From: a bacterium
GTDB taxonomy: Bacteria; UBA8248; JACPRG01; G963555815
Direction: 5' to 3'
NCBI GenBank assembly: GCA_963555815.3
Contig: CAUVWX020000002.1
Span: 544,001-608,000, forward strand
DNA: 64,000 nt
The position numbers and the translations under genes are program-made. The notes beneath the pieces are model-generated. The model saw only the letters and a list, made by a program, of their open reading frames with translations. It did no database searches and had not been told where the DNA came from. Shown here one piece after another: positions 42,454 through 54,821 of this stretch. The first letter of the stretch is position 1. Every line of letters starts with the position of its first letter.

Positions 42454-43308
42454 CTAGCGGCTGAGATTTTGGAGGAATCTCTCAGCGTCAGTCGCCTGGG
42501 TGCTTTCGATTCGACGATAGATCTCAAGGGCTTCTATCGCATACAGGATGGCTTGGTCTCTTGAGCCCAGGGCTTTGGCGAGGACGGCAAGGCTGAAGAG
42601 CGTCTCTGCAGCGCCGGGCTCGTCGCCAATCCTCCTTCGAATCTCCAGGCTTTCCCCGTAGAGCCTTTCGGCTTCGTCATAGCGCCCCAGATCCTTCGCA
42701 AGAGTGCTGAGGCCCATGAGGGTCGTCGCAACGCCGGACTCGTCGCCAATCCTCCTTGCGATCTGGATGCTCTGCTGGTAGAAGTCTTCGGCCTCGCCGT
42801 AGTGCACAAGTTTCCAAGCGATTATCCCGAGGCTGTTCAACCTTCTAGCGACGGCCGGTTCGTTGCCAAGTCTCCTCTCAATCGTCAGGCTCTCCTGGTA
42901 AAGCACCCTGGCCTCGAAATAGTTCCCCAGATTCTCGGCGGCAGCGCCTAACTGATTTAGGGCTGCGCTTCTCCCTCTCCCATCTCCCTTCTCCGTGACA
43001 AGGGAAAGGGCGCGTCGTCCCACCTCTTCGGCCTCTTCCCACCTCCCGTGCTTCCCCAGGGCTTCTCCAAGCCCTTGCCAGGCCTCGACAAGGTCCGGAT
43101 CAAGGTCTAGGGCCTGCCTGTAGAGGGAGATGGCCTCATCCCAGCGGTGGCGGCCATGCGCCTCGCGCGCCTTCGTTAGGAGGACACTCTTCTCTTCGTC
43201 AGAGAAGGAAAGGCGAAACCCATCGGGGAGCTCTCCCAACCGGCCCCCTTCAACAGGGAGCGTAGGGAGCGTCAGAAAGAGACTGAGAAAGAAAACGAAA
43301 AGGGGCAT
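42454..43308 (-). CDS. Exported tetratricopeptide repeat protein
   Basis: Hydrophobic N-terminus and 40-aa TPR-type repeats (A..LN.LG...Y.EA...Y.ESL.I.RR.GDE). Confidence 0.85.
   Translation of the reverse strand: MPLFVFFLSLFLTLPTLPVEGGRLGELPDGFRLSFSDEEKSVLLTKAREAHGRHRWDEAISLYRQALDLDPDLVEAWQGLGEALGKHGRWEEAEEVGRRALSLVTEKGDGRGRSAALNQLGAAAENLGNYFEARVLYQESLTIERRLGNEPAVARRLNSLGIIAWKLVHYGEAEDFYQQSIQIARRIGDESGVATTLMGLSTLAKDLGRYDEAERLYGESLEIRRRIGDEPGAAETLFSLAVLAKALGSRDQAILYAIEALEIYRRIESTQATDAERFLQNLSR
42599..42674 (-). repeat. 76-bp block shared (74/76) in inverted orientation with 48979-49054
   Basis: Direct comparison of the two TPR genes shows two mismatches. Confidence 0.85.
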
Positions 43309-43793: not shown

Positions 43794-45128
43794 TCAGGCC
43801 TTGGCGAAAAATTCCCGGGTCCCCTGGGCCTCGATGGCCTCCGCCAGACGCCGAAGGGCCAAGATATAAGCCGCCGTCCGGTTGTCCGTGGAATACTCCT
43901 TGGCCACACTGAGCAGCTCACGGAACTCCGTCACCATGATGGTCTTAAGCCGGCTGTGCACCTCTTCCAGCGTCCAATAGAACCCGGCCCGGTTCTGAAC
44001 CCACTCAAAATAGCTGACCGTCACACCCCCCGCGTTGGCCAGAATGTCGGGGATGAGAAAGACGCGGTGCTTCATGATGGCGCTCGCCTCTGAGGTAATC
44101 GGACCGTTGGCGAGCTCCACCATGTAACGGGCCTTCACCCTCGGCGCGTTCTCAGCCGTAATCACATTCTCCAGGGCGGAGGGAATGAGAATATCCACGT
44201 CCAGCTCCAAAAGCTCCTCGTTGGTGATCCGGTCGTGGGGGACCTCCTCAAATTCGCCGTTGCGCCGACTCACCCCGGCCACTCTCCCCTCCACGTCCTT
44301 GTGGGCCTTCACCGCCTCCGGATCAAAACCCTCCGGACGATAAATGCCCCCCTTGGAGTCACTCAAGCCCACAATCCGATAACCGTCCTGGGCAAGAAGC
44401 TGGGCCGCAAAATAACCCGCGTTCCCATAGCCCTGAATGGCCACCGTCGTCTTCTCGGGCTTCAGCCCAAACTCCTTCGCCATGACCTGGATGGTGTAAT
44501 AGCCTCCCCGGGCCGTCGCGTCCTCGCGGCCCAGACTCCCACCCAAAGAAACGGGCTTGCCGGTAATCGTCGCAGGGGTCTTCATCCGACGAATCAGACT
44601 GTACTCGTCGGCCATCCAAGCCATGATGGTGGGGTTGGTGTAAACGTCAGGAGCAGGAATATCAATGTCAGGGCCAATAAACTCCGCAATGGCGTCTATG
44701 TACCCCCGACTTAATCGTTCCAGCTCCGCATGAGAAAGCTCTCTCGGGTCGACCGCCACACCCCCCTTCGCCCCACCGAAGGGAATGTTCACCAACGCAC
44801 ACTTGAACGTCATCCAAAAGGCAAGGGCCGTCACCTCGTCTTGATCCACATCCGGATGAAACCGAATCCCCCCCTTTCCAGGACCCCGGGCGTCGTTATA
44901 ACGAACCCGATACCCCTGAAAAAGACGGAGGGAACCGTCGTCCATCCGAACCGGAATCGAAACCTGAAGGGAAAGCCTTGGATGACGAAGGGTCTCCTCG
45001 ACCTCTTCACTCAGAGGAAAAAACTCAAGCGCCCGGTCCAAGCGCCGCGTGGCGTCTTTAAAGGAACCCCCTTTTGCGGCTGTAGACTCCATCTTCAAAA
45101 CCGCAGAAGGCGTCTTACTCTCACTCAT
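43794..45128 (-). CDS. gdhA: Glu/Leu/Phe/Val dehydrogenase (glutamate dehydrogenase)
   Basis: GPGKGGIRF, PFGGAKGG, DIPAPDV, IQGYGNAG, ELANGP, NAGGVTVSYFEW. Confidence 0.9.
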   Translation of the reverse strand: MSESKTPSAVLKMESTAAKGGSFKDATRRLDRALEFFPLSEEVEETLRHPRLSLQVSIPVRMDDGSLRLFQGYRVRYNDARGPGKGGIRFHPDVDQDEVTALAFWMTFKCALVNIPFGGAKGGVAVDPRELSHAELERLSRGYIDAIAEFIGPDIDIPAPDVYTNPTIMAWMADEYSLIRRMKTPATITGKPVSLGGSLGREDATARGGYYTIQVMAKEFGLKPEKTTVAIQGYGNAGYFAAQLLAQDGYRIVGLSDSKGGIYRPEGFDPEAVKAHKDVEGRVAGVSRRNGEFEEVPHDRITNEELLELDVDILIPSALENVITAENAPRVKARYMVELANGPITSEASAIMKHRVFLIPDILANAGGVTVSYFEWVQNRAGFYWTLEEVHSRLKTIMVTEFRELLSVAKEYSTDNRTAAYILALRRLAEAIEAQGTREFFAKA

Positions 45129-45217: not shown

Positions 45218-45246
45218 AGTATAGCCCCCTTCCAAAAACCCTGCAA
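45218..45246 (-). promoter_or_regulatory. Sigma70-type promoter of gdhA
   Basis: Minus strand TTGCAG-17 nt-TATACT. Confidence 0.55.
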
Positions 45247-45278
45247 CGGACAAGGACAACCCTGAGAAACAGGGCCCC

Positions 45279-46466
45279 TCAGCGCTGGGTCACGAGGTAT
45301 TCCGCCGCCCGAAGGGCTGCCTTGGCCCCCTCCCCTGCGGCCACGAGGATCTGTTTGTCCCTCACGTTGGTCACGTCGCCTGCGGCGAAGACCCCCGGGA
45401 CGCCTGTGTTCGTATCGCAGTCAATGAGGATCTCGCCAATTGGATTCGTCTTAAGGGCGTCCAGGGCGAAGCCCGAATTCGGCAGCAGACCGACCTCGAC
45501 AAAGACCCCCCGGACCGAAAGGGTCTTCTCCTCCCACGAACTTTTAGAGCGGACGCGGACCCCCTCCACCTCGTCCTTCCCCAGGATCTCAAGGGTCTCA
45601 TGTCCTGTGAGCTGTTCCATGCGCTTCGTCTGCCTCAGCTTGTTCACGAGAACGTCGTCACCCGTGTAGTCCCCGACGACGATGAGGTAAACCTTTTTGG
45701 CCATGCGGTCGAGCTCCAGGGCCGCCTCTATAGCCGAGTTCCCACCCCCCACAACGGCCACATCAAGGCCTTTGTAAAAGGGGGCGTCGCACGTGGCGCA
45801 AAAGGCCACCCCCTTTCCCATGAGCCGCTCCTCGCCCGGAACCCCTATGCAACGCGGGCGTTTTCCCGAAGCGATGATGAGGGAACGACCCTGATACTCA
45901 TGGCCCGTCTGCGTGCAAACGCGCTTTATCTTGGGGAGTGCCTCCAGGCGGACGACGTTCGCCCCGATGATGCGGTCCATCTCGAACTGCTTTACGTGCT
46001 CGTCGAATTTGTCGATGAGGCTCTGGGCCTCGATGTAGTGGAAGCCCAGGTAGTTTTCGAGTTCAGCCGTGATGTTCAGCTGGCCCCCCACGTCCTTTCC
46101 TAGAACAAGGCATTTCAAGCCCTTCCGGCTGGCGTAAACGGCGGCCGTCATCCCGGCGGGGCCGGCCCCGATGATGATGACGTCATAGAGGGTTTTTAGG
46201 TCCGCCCGCTTCACAAGACCCAGCTTCTCATCGAGGACGCCCGTGGCGTTGAGGGCAGCAAGCTCGTCGTAACCCCCAATGACCTCCTCATCAATGAGGA
46301 TCTGGGGGGTGGTCCGCCCCCTTGTCCGCTCGATCATGGTGTCCCAGCCAGGGGTCCCGCCAAGGACCTCGATCTCCTCCGCCGTCACTTCCTTCTCCTT
46401 GAGCAGCGCCCGCGCTCGATCGCACCAGGGTCAGCCAGGTTGGGAATACATGAGGACTTTCGCCAT
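45279..46466 (-). CDS. Selenoprotein: glutaredoxin (UPWC) fused to TrxB/AhpF-type FAD disulfide reductase, 395 aa, Sec12
   Basis: RBS AGGAGG and ATG at 46466 give MAKVLMYSQPG-TGA(46431-46433)-PWCDRAR, in frame with ORF 45279-46388. Grx motifs TTPQILID and IGGYDEL; reductase motifs GAGPAG, CATCD, GGGNSA, AAGD. Confidence 0.9.
46397..46430 (-). promoter_or_regulatory. Putative bacterial SECIS element
   Basis: AGCG-CGGG-CGCT hairpin (alternative GAGC/GCTC pairing) with loop starting ~19 nt after UGA. Confidence 0.6.
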
Positions 46467-46640
46467 GAGGACCTCCTTTCGGTGGATGAGAGAAACGTGA
46501 TGGGGGATGGATCATCGGCCAGGGAAAGGGATTTAGACCCCTCCCGATTTTCGAAACTCCCCCTCCTCCCCCTTATAATGAAAAGAGATTGAAGAAACCA
46601 TTATAATTAGGGCAAAAATGCCACCGGAGAGAAGGCCATT

Positions 46641-47633
46641 CTGAGACCGCCACAATTCCGCCAAGCCAGGGTCATCCGGGGGTTCTTCTGGGGCCTTCTG
46701 CTGACGGGTGCTTTCGGATGCGCCCAAGGTTCCCATTCGAAACACCCAGGACAGGAACCCCCCCCCCTTCTCGACACGGTGAGGCTCCTTGAGGGACGCA
46801 CCGACCAGGAGAGATTGCTCGCCGTCGAGGAGATCTTGCAAGGAAAGGGGGTCCCTTTTGAGAGACGACCTTATCTGGTCTCGGGCGAGGAGAGGCAAAA
46901 CCTCCTTTGGGAGGTTCACCCGGGCCACGAGATCCTCATCCTCTCGGCCCACTATGACGCCGCAAGGGGCTCTCCTGGGGCAAATGACAACGCCTCCTGC
47001 GTTTCGGTCCTCCTTGAGGCGGGAGAGCGCCTCGCCCGGGAGCACCTTGGCCCCCTGGGCCTTCGAATTCTCTTCTTCGGAGATGAAGAGGGAGGGCTCC
47101 TCGGGAGCCAGGCCTACGTTGCGGGGGAAGACCTCAGGGAGGTCATCGGCGTCCTGAACCTCGAGCTTTGTGGGATAGGGGATATGGCAGGGCTCTGGGA
47201 TGTCCGGAACGACGACCGGGGCTCCCTTCTCTTTCGCTCCCTCGTTGCCGCCTTTGAACGGGAGGACATCCCCTTTGGGGTCGTCCCGAGGCTCCGGAGG
47301 TTTTCCAGCGACCACCGGAGCTTTTGGAGACGGGGGATACCCGGCTTCGCCCTGACGGTGGTCCCGGAAAAGGAGGAGGCACTTCTTCGAGCTTACGTGG
47401 AGGACCCCGGGGCAGAAAGGTGGCGGGATCCTTCCTCCCGGCCCACTCCCTTTCAGACCTATCACTCGGCCGGGGATCTTGCCGACACCCTCAGTGAGGG
47501 GGCTCTTCGATTGATGGCCGGGGCCGTTGTGGAAGGCGTCCTCGAGCTCTCGAGGAAGCTCAGGCCGACGAGCCCGGATGGGGAGGCGTCCATCGAGGAT
47601 TTTTATAAGACCGAAGTCTCTTTGGTGGAATAA
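46641..47633 (+). CDS. M28 family peptidase, probable lipoprotein (start uncertain)
   Basis: SAHYD, PGANDNAS, DEEGGLLGS, LNLE, SDH, YHS..D motifs. The frame extends upstream of GTG 46779 through RVIRGFFWGLLLTGAFG-C. Confidence 0.8.
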   Translation: MRPPQFRQARVIRGFFWGLLLTGAFGCAQGSHSKHPGQEPPPLLDTVRLLEGRTDQERLLAVEEILQGKGVPFERRPYLVSGEERQNLLWEVHPGHEILILSAHYDAARGSPGANDNASCVSVLLEAGERLAREHLGPLGLRILFFGDEEGGLLGSQAYVAGEDLREVIGVLNLELCGIGDMAGLWDVRNDDRGSLLFRSLVAAFEREDIPFGVVPRLRRFSSDHRSFWRRGIPGFALTVVPEKEEALLRAYVEDPGAERWRDPSSRPTPFQTYHSAGDLADTLSEGALRLMAGAVVEGVLELSRKLRPTSPDGEASIEDFYKTEVSLVE

Positions 47634-47674
47634 CGCTGCAGGGCACCCCTGAGGCCCGAAAGGGGTGAGGGGAA

Positions 47675-48373
47675 ATGGCTGTCGAGCGAAATCACTATCA
47701 GAGAATCCCCCCAGGGCCTCTGTTTGGCTTATGGTCCTGGCGCTATCTCGACCTCCTGAAGATGATCCGTCTCAGGCTGAACCCGCGGATCCATGGCTTC
47801 TATACAAAGTTTCCCACCATTCCCCCCCCCGGCTCCAAATTCCCCGAGGTCGACCTGGAGACGGTGGACGGAGGGAGAATCAACACAAAAGCGCTTCAAG
47901 GGAGGAGGCACTTCGTCCTCCTCACCGGGGCCCTCACCTGACCTCCGACCCGGAGGCAGTTGCCTCTCATGGAGGAGCTGGCAAGAAAGTATAAGGACCG
48001 GGGTGTGGAGGTCTTCCTCATGTACGTCCGGGAGCCCCATGCGAAAGAGCGGGGCTTTCGCCAGTACCGAAAACATGAGAGTTACGACCACAAGATGGAG
48101 TACGCAAAGCTCCTGGTGAAAAAGCACAGCCTCGTCATCCCCTGTCTTGTGGACAGCCTTGATGAAAAGTTGCACCAGATTCTTGGAAACCTTCCAAATC
48201 TTGTTTATGTGGTGGATAAGAAAGGGGAGGTCTTCTACAAAAACACCTGGACAGACGCAGACGCCATTGACGAGATCCTGGCTGAGCTGGTGACGGCGGA
48301 AGACCCATCGCGCCCCGTCCAAAAGACGATGGACAGTCGCCACGTGCCGGGCCGGATCCCCGTTGAGGTGTAG
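47675..48373 (+). CDS. Selenoprotein: iodothyronine deiodinase-like thioredoxin-fold protein, 232 aa, Sec89
   Basis: ORFs 47675-47941 and 47960-48373 are one frame separated only by TGA at 47939-47941: FVLLTGALT-U-PPTRRQLP...YKDRGVEVFLMYVREPH...DSLD...GNLPNLVYVV. Confidence 0.88.
47942..47975 (+). promoter_or_regulatory. Putative bacterial SECIS element
   Basis: Lower stem CCTCC/GGAGG, upper stem GAGGC-AGTT-GCCTC, loop at +17 to +20 from UGA. Confidence 0.7.
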
Positions 48374-48512
48374 GTCCGGGATGAGCGGCCCTCCCACACC
48401 ATCCGGCCCCAGAAAGTTCTTGTCTGAATGTTCTCTTGGATAGTACTATTTAGCCCTTGATAGGGATCCAGTGAAAGGGGCACAACCGACCCCTCTTTTC
48501 GGGAGAACACCC

Positions 48513-49688
48513 ATGATCCTCGCCAGGATATCTCTTCTCGCCCTCTTTTTCCCTCTTCTCCTCGTCCTCCCAGCCGAGGGGGTTCGGCAGGTCTCTGCTG
48601 TCTTTCTTAAGAACCAAGCCGGGCCTGAAAGCGGTGCGCGGGACCATCGGAAAGGGCTCGACCCGGAGCTTCTTTCCTTCTTTGGCCCCTCTGATGAAGA
48701 GAAGAATGCCATCCTAACGAAGGCGCACGAGGCTCATAACAGTCAGCTTTGGGATGAGGCCGTCTCTCTCTACCGCCAGGTCATTGCCCTCGACTCGGAC
48801 GACGCCGAGGCCTGGCAAGGGCTTGGGATCGCACTTCAACACCAGGAAATATGGGGCGAGGCACAGGACGCTGGGAAGCAGGCCCTTTCCATTTTCACGG
48901 AGCGCGGAGACGAGAAGGGGAGAGGGGAGGTCCTCTACAACCTCGGCAACATCTCTGAGGACCGCGGGCACCATGACCAAGCCGAAAGGCTCTACGGGGA
49001 AAGCCTGGAGATTCAAAGGAGGATTGGCGACGAGCCCGGCGCCGCAGAGACGCTGAACAACCTGGGAATTCTCGCTGGGATCCAGGAGCGCTATGTCGAG
49101 GCCGAGACGCTCTTCCAGGAGAGGCTGGAGATCCAGAGGAAACTCGGCGACGAGGCCGGCATCTCAGAGACGCTGTACAACCTGGGAGTGGTCGCCGAGA
49201 GGGAAGCACGCTACGACAAGGCCAAAGAGCTCTACCATGAGGGCCTGGAGATTGAAAGGAAGCTTGGCGATGAGGCCGGCTTGGCGACGACGCTGAATAA
49301 CCTCGGCGATGTTGCCGCGAGACAAGAACAGTACGAAGAGGCCAATGGGTTCTTTCAGGAGAGCCTGGAGATTCAAAGGAAACTGGGAGATGAGTCGGGG
49401 CTCGTCGTGACGCTGTTCAACCTGGGAGTGGTGGCCGAGAACCGCGAGCAGAGCGGAGAGGCCATGGGGTTGTACCAGGAGGCCTTAGAGATCGGCAGGA
49501 AGCTCAACGATGAACCCCTCGTCGGGCAGACTCTATTCTCCCTCGCCCTCCTCGCTGAGGCTGAGGGCTCAAGGGACGAGGCCGTCGAATACGCAAAAGA
49601 GGCCCATGAGATATTCGGCAAGATAAAGAGCCCATTGGAAGTGAGAACCCGAAACTTCCTGCGAATCCTGGGATGGCCCGTTCCGTAG
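48513..49688 (+). CDS. Exported tetratricopeptide repeat protein (paralog of 42454-43308)
   Basis: Signal peptide MILARISLLALFFPLLLVLPAEG, shared SDEEK..LTKA.EAH...WDEA.SLYRQ segment, 40-aa TPR repeats. Confidence 0.85.
   Translation: MILARISLLALFFPLLLVLPAEGVRQVSAVFLKNQAGPESGARDHRKGLDPELLSFFGPSDEEKNAILTKAHEAHNSQLWDEAVSLYRQVIALDSDDAEAWQGLGIALQHQEIWGEAQDAGKQALSIFTERGDEKGRGEVLYNLGNISEDRGHHDQAERLYGESLEIQRRIGDEPGAAETLNNLGILAGIQERYVEAETLFQERLEIQRKLGDEAGISETLYNLGVVAEREARYDKAKELYHEGLEIERKLGDEAGLATTLNNLGDVAARQEQYEEANGFFQESLEIQRKLGDESGLVVTLFNLGVVAENREQSGEAMGLYQEALEIGRKLNDEPLVGQTLFSLALLAEAEGSRDEAVEYAKEAHEIFGKIKSPLEVRTRNFLRILGWPVP
48979..49054 (+). repeat. 76-bp block shared (74/76) in inverted orientation with 42599-42674
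   Basis: Direct sequence comparison. Confidence 0.85.
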
Positions 49689-50738: not shown

Positions 50739-52501
50739 ATGGAGCCGAAGATCCAGGTTCTTCCTCCTATCCTGGCCGACCAAATTGCGGCGGGGGAGGT
50801 TATCGAGCGCCCGTCCTCGGTCGTGAAGGAGCTCCTTGAGAACGCTCTGGACGCCGGGGCCAGGTCCATTGAAGTCCAGATCAAAGGGGCCGGTCGGGGT
50901 CTCATCCGGGTCCTCGATGATGGGGAGGGGATGAGTCCTGAGGACGCAAGGCGGGCCTTTCTTCGCCACGCGACCAGCAAGATCGAACGTGCGGAGGATC
51001 TCAGGGCCATCCGAACGCTCGGCTTTCGGGGTGAGGCCCTGCCGAGCATCGCCGCCGTATCCCGAGTCACACTCATCACGCGCCCAAGGGGAGGAGGTCC
51101 CGAGGGGACGCGCGTCCTGATCGAAGGCGGCAAGGTGAGAGACGTCTCACCGGCTCCGTCTCCTGAGGGGACGTCCATTGAGGTTCGGGATCTTTTCTTC
51201 AATACGCCGGCGCGTCTTAAATTTTTAAAAAGCCCGGGGACCGAAATCTCCCGGATCGTCGAGGCAACCTCTCAGGCGGCCCTCTCAGCCCCCGGCCTTC
51301 GCCTGAAGCTGACCCATGAGGGACGGGCCCTCCTCGACCTTCCCCCCGCGAGGGACCGGGGGGAGAGAGTCCGAAGGCTCCTCGCAGGAACAGAAGCAAA
51401 GGAGCTTTTTTCCCTCCCTCTCTTTGAGGAAGGGCCCAGTGGAATCAGGGTCGAGGGCTTTTGTTCGCCCCCTCCCCTAACCCGGGCTTCCAGGTCTTGC
51501 CAGCACGTCCTCGTCAACGGCCGCTACGTCAGGGACCGGATCATCCTGAACGCCCTCTCCGAGGCCTATCGAAACCTTTTGCCCGCCGGAAGGCATCCCC
51601 TTGCTTTCCTCTTCATCGAGATGGCGCCAGACGCACTCGATGTGAACGTCCATCCGGCAAAGGCCGAGGTGCGCTTTCAAGATGGGAGACAAGTGTTCTC
51701 GGCGGTGAGGAAGGGAGTCCTGGAGGGCCTGGTCCGGGCCGGGGCCTCCCCCGCCCTCGAGACGCCAAAGGGGCCCGCTTATTCTATGAAGGGCCATAGA
51801 ATGCCCGCGCCGTCTCCTGCGAGATGGTCTCTTCCCGTCCGCTCTCTGGGAAAGGTGGTGGCGCTGGCGCCAAAGGAGGCGCCTGATGAGCCCCTCCCCC
51901 TCCTTGCACCTGGGACACCAAAGAACCTCCTCTCGGAGGGCCGCGTCCTGGGCCAGCTCCACGCCACCTACATTCTCTTGGAGCACGCCCGCGGGATGAT
52001 GCTTGTGGATCAGCACGCGGCCCATGAGCGGCTCCTCTTTGCCCGTCTGAAGGACAGGATTGAAAAAGGGAAGGTCGAAGGCCAGGGCCTCCTCCTCTCC
52101 CTCCCCATTGATTTCTCTCCGGAAGATGCCGAGGTCCTCTCCGAGCGCCTGGAGGATCTCAAAACCCTGGGATTTCATCTCGAACCCTTTGGGCCAAGGA
52201 GCTTCCTTCTGAGAGAGGTTCCCGCCCTTCTCGCCCACGAGGACCCGGAGGAGCTTCTCAGGGAACTCCTGGCCGGCCTGAAGGAGGGGAGGGACAAAAA
52301 ACTCTCCGAGCTCGGGGAGGGCCTGCTTGAGCAGATGGCCTGCCGGGGAGCCCTCAAGGCGGGAAAGACTCTTAACCGTGAGGAGATGGAGCACCTCATC
52401 TCTGAGTGCCTCGAGCTCGATCTCCTCTTTGCCTGCCCTCATGGGCGGCCCATCACCCTTCTTCTCCCAAAGGAAGAAGTAGAGCGGAGATTTTTGAGGC
52501 G

Positions 52502-52505
<4 letters not shown>
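50739..52505 (+). CDS. mutL: DNA mismatch repair protein MutL, endonuclease type
   Basis: IAAGEVIERP, GFRGEAL, DVNVHPAK; C-terminal DQHAAHER, ACR and CPHGRP. Confidence 0.96.

Positions 52506-54821
<2,316 letters not shown>

Follow-up and report, generated by a model that had tools for sequence, protein, structure and literature searches.

The 64,000-nucleotide stretch analyzed here (the window; positions 544,001 to 608,000 of contig CAUVWX020000002.1, bacterial assembly GCA_963555815.3, GTDB lineage UBA8248; JACPRG01; G963555815) carries two genes with an in-frame UGA, one for a glutaredoxin-thioredoxin reductase (Grx-TrxR) fusion and one for a deiodinase-like thioredoxin-fold protein. Both UGAs are very likely decoded as selenocysteine (Sec), judging from codon conservation, hairpins and the Sec machinery of the genome. 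Across the relatives compared, the two predicted Sec enzymes are neighbors in this genus only and, with a probability of roughly two in three, are redox enzymes that act independently and do not form a dedicated dehalogenation module. As the initial annotation of the window had described, the two recoded genes lie on opposite strands about 1.2 kb apart, their divergent starts being separated by 1209 bp with a single M28 peptidase gene in between. The features of the two genes are as follows.

45279..46466, minus strand: Grx-TrxR fusion, 395 amino acids (aa), predicted selenoprotein; UPWC at 12-15, GAGPAG, CATC at 223-226, GGGNSA, no HRR; closest solved structure is the C-terminal part of AhpF
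46431..46433, minus strand: fusion UGA, predicted Sec12; in frame, aligned with the Cys of CPWC homologs
46401..46417, minus strand: selenocysteine insertion sequence (SECIS)-type hairpin of the fusion; bulged stem with a GGGC loop ~19 nt 3′ of the UGA, weak here
47675..48373, plus strand: deiodinase-like thioredoxin-fold protein, 232 aa, predicted selenoprotein; T88 U89 P P, Y117, E120, H122, H134
47939..47941, plus strand: deiodinase-like UGA, predicted Sec89; in frame, aligned with Sec170 of mouse Dio3
47954..47965, plus strand: SECIS-type hairpin of the deiodinase-like gene; stem of 4 pairs with loop AG(G/U)U, 16 nt 3′ of the UGA

Decoding of the two UGA codons

The window's genome (G000; 2.08 Mb, 95.7% complete) holds all of the Sec machinery that the initial annotation had named as a check on its reading: selA, selB and selD scored over curated cut-offs, a tRNA-Sec (selC) is present, and selD itself contains one TGA. 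At the column of U89, TGA was found in 36/36 aligned deiodinase-like copies (34 distinct; two were fetched twice), and codon 12 of the fusion was TGA in 27, TGC or TGT in 3 and frameshifted in 1 of 31 metagenome loci (≥65% identity). The SECIS-type hairpin of the deiodinase-like gene kept 4/4 pairs at 33 of 35 sites, with C-G as the outer pair at 28 of them and A-U at 5, both positions being synonymous. A perfect 8-pair hairpin followed the UGA in 28/28 TGA-type fusion homologs outside the genus (27 metagenome loci plus genome G014); among Cys-type copies, with the frameshifted locus left out, the hairpin was lost in four, had 7 pairs in one and kept all 8 in genome G002. The window and the congener G001 carry a bulged variant with an unchanged loop position. 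In a tree of the fusion (27 rows; 4 of 17 chosen loci were dropped as too short, and the codons of the P rows were not seen), Cys copies were interspersed among Sec copies at several supported places, a scatter that suggests repeated Sec/Cys exchange.

That the UGAs are instead real stops or errors, and the genes broken, is hardly credible. The hairpin of the window's fusion is weak, and the minimum-energy structure of the 54-64 nt after the UGA is a different one (z of +0.6 and +1.2), which counts against the hairpin; in addition, the fusion is frameshifted in the G001 (L083:8161-8532) and G014 (L109) assemblies. These frameshifts are probably assembly errors, and a very similar intact record (P0048) exists for G014. 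Against broken genes stand TGA at the catalytic column in 36/36 and 27/31 homologs with Cys in the others, flanks conserved on both sides, conserved hairpins and the complete Sec machinery. Short-read contigs (3/3 non-RNA runs, from three studies) cover both UGA codons and are unchanged at either, so neither UGA is an assembly error. In one metatranscriptome a lone contig of 202 nt lay at the 3′ end of the deiodinase-like gene (share 0.07), which is not proof of expression or of an operon.

The genome also encodes a second RNA over the Rfam tRNA-Sec cut-off (50.4 bits; L181:249-340, G000:C1:678548-678639, plus strand), which was not called by ARAGORN. Its anticodon is UAA, its acceptor stem has 8 pairs with one mismatch and its T-stem 4 pairs, the variable arm is long, the discriminator is A and the CCA is encoded; in this it presumably resembles the 8/4 “allo-tRNAs”, and an ordinary tRNA-Leu(UAA) is present in the same genome.

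Properties of the two predicted selenoproteins

Translated with TGA as U, the fusion starts at ATG 46466 and has its UGA at codon 12 within YSQPG-U-PWC. Its Grx domain (residues 4-63; Pfam PF00462, 48.8 bits, cut-off 22.9) contains the (C/U)xxC and TxPQI motifs, and its Pyr_redox_2 domain (residues 94-380) contains CATC at 223-226. AhpF was the best NCBIfam and PDB match of the flavin module (E = 3 × 10−67 to 1HYU), with GAGPAG, CATCD and GGGNSA aligned to 1HYU. However, the score against TIGR03140 (AhpF), 319.6 bits, is below the cut-off of 502.9 and covers profile positions 171-514 only, so that the full N-terminal domain is not matched; the score against TIGR01292 (NADPH-dependent TrxR) is also below cut-off (291.4 against 343.45 bits). 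The HRR motif, which the relevant passage of PMC5627308 describes as selective for NADPH and as binding the 2′-phosphate, is absent from the fusion, where VVGD stands in its place, and from 66/66 homologs. With HRR missing and GGGNSA intact, NADH is the inferred donor, NADPH is unlikely and ferredoxin is possible. Cys-type Grx3-TrxR fusions with the same domain order occur in other lineages (records labeled Halanaerobiales, Deltaproteobacteria and Halobacterium); the architecture itself is therefore not new, and what varies here is the use of Sec. Continued translation past the last TGA of the fusion into the glutamate dehydrogenase gene gdhA (an 895-aa frame) was rejected because homologs stop at the same residue, and a single-sequence structure prediction of the fusion (predicted local distance difference test [pLDDT] of 32) was not used.

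We propose that electrons would pass within one chain from NADH to flavin adenine dinucleotide (FAD), to CATC and on to UPWC of the fusion's own Sec-glutaredoxin domain, whose selenolate would then reduce oxidized client proteins. The initial annotation had extended such a relay, from NAD(P)H or ferredoxin, to the deiodinase Sec; its internal part (FAD to CATC to UPWC) follows from the domain order, and NADPH at its start is made unlikely by the missing HRR. Because no glutathione synthetase was found (no gshB or gshF match in the 96% complete genome), recycling of the Grx domain probably falls to the fused flavin domain. With neither gshB/gshF nor an AhpC over cut-off, likely clients would be at least 10 other redox selenoproteins (two peroxiredoxin [Prx]-like, two AhpD/CMD, ArsC, DsbA-like and others) along with both deiodinase-like copies. 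As a precedent, Clostridium pasteurianum reportedly has separate TrxR-like and Grx-like proteins (Cp34/Cp9) that reduce AhpC.

The deiodinase-like gene starts at ATG 47675 and has its UGA at codon 89 within GALT-U-PP. PF00837 matched residues 52-189, across the Sec site, with 36.8 bits (cut-off 27; relatives reach up to 59.5 bits), and the protein scored below the cut-off of NF038285 (74.5 of 250 bits). Searched against solved structures, the family profile found mouse Dio3 first (E = 6.6 × 10−13), then ResA and Dio2 (E = 7.2 × 10−11). Counterparts of Dio3 T169, U170, Y197, E200, H202 and H219 are kept, and Y117, E120, H122 and H134 are invariant in the family alignment. Five of six members of the Dio3 proton-relay set (T169/Y197/E200/H202/H219/S167) are thus retained, the sixth, S167, being Ala here and mostly Ala in the family. 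In Dio3 the phenol of the substrate is bound by His202, and the proton passes through His219 and Glu200 (PMC12025243, section 5). The resolving Cys168 is not kept (Leu87 here; Leu, Ile or Val in the family), Cys239 is not conserved in the family (in this genus alone, Cys157 is close to the 239 region), and the thyronine-binding Phe258-Glu259 pair is replaced by Pro174-Asn175; a further thyronine-binding residue, Arg275, falls outside the aligned stretch. An AlphaFold model (pLDDT 77.5) gave ResA, Bcp and Prx as top Foldseek matches, with no deiodinase among the matches listed. The family has a conserved N-terminal PPGPxxGxWSW extension. The protein shows no clear membrane anchor and is apparently soluble, and neither selenoprotein shows a signal peptide. 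A second deiodinase-like copy in the genome (L094:8077-10387; C1:251-253 kb) is a TGA-type selenoprotein of 67-69% identity, with Ser at the Dio3 Ser167 column, an 8-residue insert and a TTG start.

In the mechanism that we envisage, the Sec selenolate would attack a small electrophile, the His/Glu relay would protonate the leaving group, and an outside reductant would reset the enzyme; because there is no conserved resolving Cys, an outside thiol or selenol protein would have to reduce it at each turnover. The fusion could still do so, with the deiodinase-like protein as one client among several, but it is not an obligatory reductant, because most genomes with the deiodinase-like gene show no fusion. 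As to substrate, we lean modestly toward a peroxide-type or other redox compound, take halogenated phenols as a possible but clearly less probable choice, and leave a small share to something else. Thyronines are unlikely, a peroxide-type oxidant being more likely, and dehalogenation by this protein is possible. Bacterial deiodinase-like selenoproteins have been reported before, and the portion of PMC1088965 that treats them proposes a different, redox function for the bacterial family.

Both genes are missed by standard gene callers, as had been expected: 56 of 66 close homolog records of the fusion begin 3′ of the UGA and lack the N-terminal motif, and JGI labels homologs of the fusion AhpF. 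Database matches of the deiodinase-like protein are mostly C-terminal pieces of 115-142 aa called hypothetical protein, the named ones being labeled Nitrospinota, Nitrospiraceae or Rokubacteria.

Gene order, neighborhood and competing explanations

In the genomes compared, the pairing is confined to the genus. The fusion was found in 6/51 genomes of the phylum and the deiodinase-like gene in 41/41 genomes of the class, where 2-4 copies with one TGA are usual; 35 of these 41 show no fusion. The order fusion, M28, deiodinase-like gene and tetratricopeptide repeat (TPR) gene is kept in no genome other than the congener G001, and at ~92% identity this order is shared by descent. In four of four genomes outside the genus that hold both genes, the two are unlinked: in G002, G003 and G005 a Cys-type fusion, the M28 orthologue and the deiodinase-like genes lie on separate contigs or ≥99 kb apart, and in G014 (one contig, 3.68 Mb) a TGA-type fusion lies at 23.6 kb, more than 1.4 Mb from the deiodinase-like genes, which are TGA-type too and lie at 1.56 and 2.28 Mb. 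Neither a deiodinase orthologue nor an M28 gene was found in the 31 metagenome fusion loci, 13 of which hold at least 2 kb upstream; the upstream slot is taken by an LpoB-like gene in 19 of the 31. The dedicated paired module of the initial annotation, for which a lack of conserved co-localization in relatives had been set as refuting, thus fails outside the genus (0/4 genomes, 0/31 metagenome loci). A single-sequence search of genome contigs matched the congener only and is uninformative on other phyla, and a weak deiodinase match near a Cys-type fusion (L138; 5.5 kb away) turned out to be TlpA-like.

Relatives suggest how the pair arose. In G003-G006 (L087, L090, L091, L093) the deiodinase-like gene sits between an M48 peptidase gene and selB-selA, and an M48 gene precedes it in five family relatives; in the window's genome, M48 and selAB lie 3.3 kb apart (C1:363-371 kb) with no deiodinase-like gene between them. 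Since relatives keep the gene by selB-selA and this site lacks it here, the pairing appears derived, and we infer that a rearrangement moving the deiodinase-like gene from beside selB-selA brought the two together. At two of these loci the gene is incomplete, being split by ~1.4 kb of other DNA in G003 (L090) and reduced to its C-terminal half in G006 (L093). In a larger sister family (L098-L102 plus 13 shorter loci) the deiodinase-like gene is followed by a DinB-superfamily gene on the same strand, and the gene before it is conserved and matches no Pfam family; this neighborhood may be a better functional clue than that of the window. Tandem deiodinase-like selenoprotein genes were seen in G014 (L096:7981-9451) and likewise on contig C50 of G038.

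The genome has at least 14 selenoprotein genes, made up of 10 Pfam-confirmed genes, selD, the fusion and two deiodinase-like copies, a rich selenoproteome for 2.08 Mb as predicted from the sequence. The de novo scan was noisy, with 937 candidates, 19 of which were taken to Pfam by motif or score and 10 of which had a redox domain across the UGA; because only 19 went to Pfam, 14 is a lower bound. The ten further UGA read-through genes (L162-L171, on C1 and C2) comprise two CMD/AhpD, four AhpC-TSA/redoxin types and one each of DsbA-like, rhodanese, ArsC and small glutaredoxin. When 14 genes were placed at random, some pair fell within one intervening gene in 16-18% of trials, so that the closeness of the two selenoprotein genes is only moderately beyond chance.

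The remaining features of the locus and its surroundings are as follows.

46638..47633, plus strand: M28-family zinc peptidase, predicted to be a lipoprotein; putative start codon ATT 46638 or CTG 46641
46551..46607, plus strand: two sigma-70-like promoter matches (10/12) in the divergent intergenic region, toward the M28 gene; consensus scan only, 2 found against 0.8 expected
45239..45282, minus strand: two terminator-like hairpins between the fusion stop and gdhA; consensus scan only
48471..49688, plus strand: TPR-repeat protein, 3′ of the deiodinase-like gene
43794..45128, minus strand: gdhA (context only)
42454..43308, minus strand: TPR paralog, 48% identical (context only)

The peptidase (PF04389, 104.7 bits, over cut-off) has its H-x-D, D, EE, E and H ligands, as read from the translation. 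Its frame extends upstream of the called GTG into a hydrophobic stretch ending in a lipobox Cys (46719-46721), and a similar Met-initiated signal with Cys is present in 3/4 M28 orthologs of the family; the peptidase is predicted to be an exported lipoprotein. The first ATG, GTG or TTG of the frame is at 46779, with no such start upstream in the signal region, and for the signal to be included, translation would apparently have to begin at a non-standard codon (ATT or CTG) in G000 and G001 alike. The initial annotation had also bracketed the locus with inverted TPR paralogs. These are real (48% identical). They are, however, separated from the pair by 2.0 kb on one side and 0.1 kb on the other, gdhA and a HIT gene intervene, and the genome has at least 4 further close paralogs at other sites. 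We rejected the bracket as a mobile or functional boundary, given at least 6 paralogs in all, a second TPR gene closer to another copy (51%) than to the first (48%), and flat G+C (0.57-0.62 across the locus); the inverted repeats at the locus are the TPR coding sequences themselves. A TPR gene also lies 3′ of the second deiodinase-like copy, in this genus only. Short-read contigs break at 45248-45290 in three runs; because a second contig carries the same 30-43 bases, the hairpin after the fusion stop seems to occur elsewhere too. Farther along the window (52406-53347, between mutL and guaB) lies an open reading frame that resembles a Dam-type DNA adenine methyltransferase by eye from its translation.

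The view that the two enzymes act independently has to be held against several observations. The genes are the closest pair among the 14 selenoprotein genes (1209 bp, the next being 9268 bp), the fusion in particular would have such a neighbor by chance in ~3%, the fusion and the peptidase/deiodinase-like side share one intergenic region, and their order is kept in G001. An AhpC over the family cut-off was not found in the genome (best 52.4 of 272 bits) and none is adjacent, so that the classical AhpF client is missing; the best solved match of the deiodinase-like family is Dio3 and not a peroxiredoxin, which argues for deiodinase-like chemistry; and many metagenome contigs are short, while the absence of a gene from a 96% complete genome is not proof. 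The closest-pair fact is the main evidence left for a functional link. Together with the ~3% chance and the order kept in G001, it would fit a co-regulated unit in this genus, with the Sec-Grx domain as the preferred reductant of the one-Sec deiodinase-like enzyme in a Se-to-Se relay like that of the C. oremlandii Sec-Grx/Sec-MsrA pair. So would the absence of a conserved resolving Cys, the Sec kept in the fusion of this genus where three family members have Cys, and the reduction of a one-Sec MsrA by Grx and not Trx, given in the pertinent part of PMC4479559. We nevertheless judge such a unit rather unlikely, given the lack of linkage in all four outside-genus genomes holding both genes, the 35/41 genomes without a fusion, the second deiodinase-like copy on another contig and the descent that suffices for the order in G001.

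Independence of the two enzymes would also be compatible with a true reductive dehalogenase of halogenated phenols that is recycled by any Trx or Grx and whose adjacency to the fusion is incidental, a proposal that differs from ours in substrate only. The profile matches to Dio3 and Dio2, the four invariant residues and the roles of His202, His219 and Glu200 in Dio3 (PMC12025243) speak for it, but presence in 41/41 genomes, with 2-4 copies in many of them, is what a redox enzyme with a housekeeping role would show, Foldseek returned ResA, Bcp and Prx on top, and a redox function is what the cited portion of PMC1088965 proposes; we hold it doubtful, if worth an assay. A three-gene catabolic route, in which halogenated amino acids released by the M28 peptidase would lose their halogen to the deiodinase-like enzyme, with electrons fed by the fusion, could draw on the same Dio3 counterparts (T169, Y197, E200, H202, H219), on the co-directional M28 and deiodinase-like genes 41 bp apart, and on the M48 peptidase gene that precedes the deiodinase-like gene in five family relatives. 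However, M48 and M28 are unrelated families, M28 orthologs lie elsewhere in 4 family genomes with none in 45/51 genomes at 1e-25, the M28 protein as a predicted lipoprotein would sit in another compartment, and Dio3 Ser167, Cys168, Phe258 and Glu259 are replaced. The predicted export and unlinked orthologs likewise weaken the initial suggestion that the peptidase releases halogenated amino acids, and we regard the whole route as very improbable. Scarcely better placed is the combination of a class-wide Sec enzyme doing deiodinase chemistry (removing I or Br from phenolics) with recharging, in this genus, by a Se-to-Se relay from a single-chain NADH to FAD to dithiol to Sec-Grx reductase; if true, the deiodinase cycle would gain a soluble model from bacteria, with the gene for the native reductant adjacent. 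Overall, the earlier interpretation of the locus is partly supported.

Relation to known systems and significance

Both proteins have known relatives from which they differ in specific ways. AhpF (TIGR03140; PDB 1HYU and 4O5Q), like the fusion, joins an N-terminal thioredoxin-fold domain to a TrxR-like FAD/CxxC module without HRR; at ~520 aa it is longer than the fusion (395 aa), which has one Grx3-like domain in place of the AhpF N-terminal domain and Sec in its UPWC. Sec-glutaredoxins (PF00462, UxxC; Table 1 of PMC13188914; C. oremlandii Grx1) share the N-terminal UxxC in a Grx domain and the SECIS-type hairpin after the UGA, whereas the fusion is joined to its own flavin reductase in a genome in which glutathione synthetase was not found. 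Cys-type Grx3-TrxR fusions (CPYC) have the same order and a similar length (395-440 aa), with Cys only in those seen, in contrast to the (U/C)PWC clade of the window, which switches between Sec and Cys. Bacterial deiodinase-like selenoproteins, as far as described in the relevant parts of PMC1088965 and PMC2398784, likewise combine PF00837 over an in-frame UGA with a bacterial SECIS-type hairpin; the window's protein has TUPP and no second Cys, compared with UxxC in the representative shown in the table of PMC13188914, and its family is class-wide and multi-copy. Animal Dio1-3 (PDB 4TR3 and 9H48) share the Prx-like fold and the T-U-P-P, YxxExH and HxS motifs, but the deiodinase-like protein does not keep Ser167, Cys168, Cys239 or Phe258-Glu259 and has no clear membrane anchor.

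Within Table 1 of PMC13188914 (2026), 119 families are given, including Grx (UxxC) and deiodinase-like proteins, with no Grx-TrxR fusion among them. Our literature search, in which most subscription papers were out of reach, gave no description of a Sec fusion or of the pairing, and a fusion of this kind may be present in supplementary sequence sets such as that of PMC2398784. In its Sec form, the Grx-TrxR fusion therefore appears uncatalogued; the pairing itself is probably not a discovery.

Two annotations are corrected here, both genes appearing truncated at the UGA. The Sec fusion is frequent in metagenomes; there its active site is lost in gene calling, and what is left is labeled AhpF. 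Its natural Sec and Cys versions, with matching SECIS gain and loss, form a test set for the effect of selenium on a self-recycling reductase. The deiodinase-like family has been without a function since 2005; class-wide, multi-copy and apparently soluble, with invariant Sec and proton-relay residues, it is a good subject for assay.

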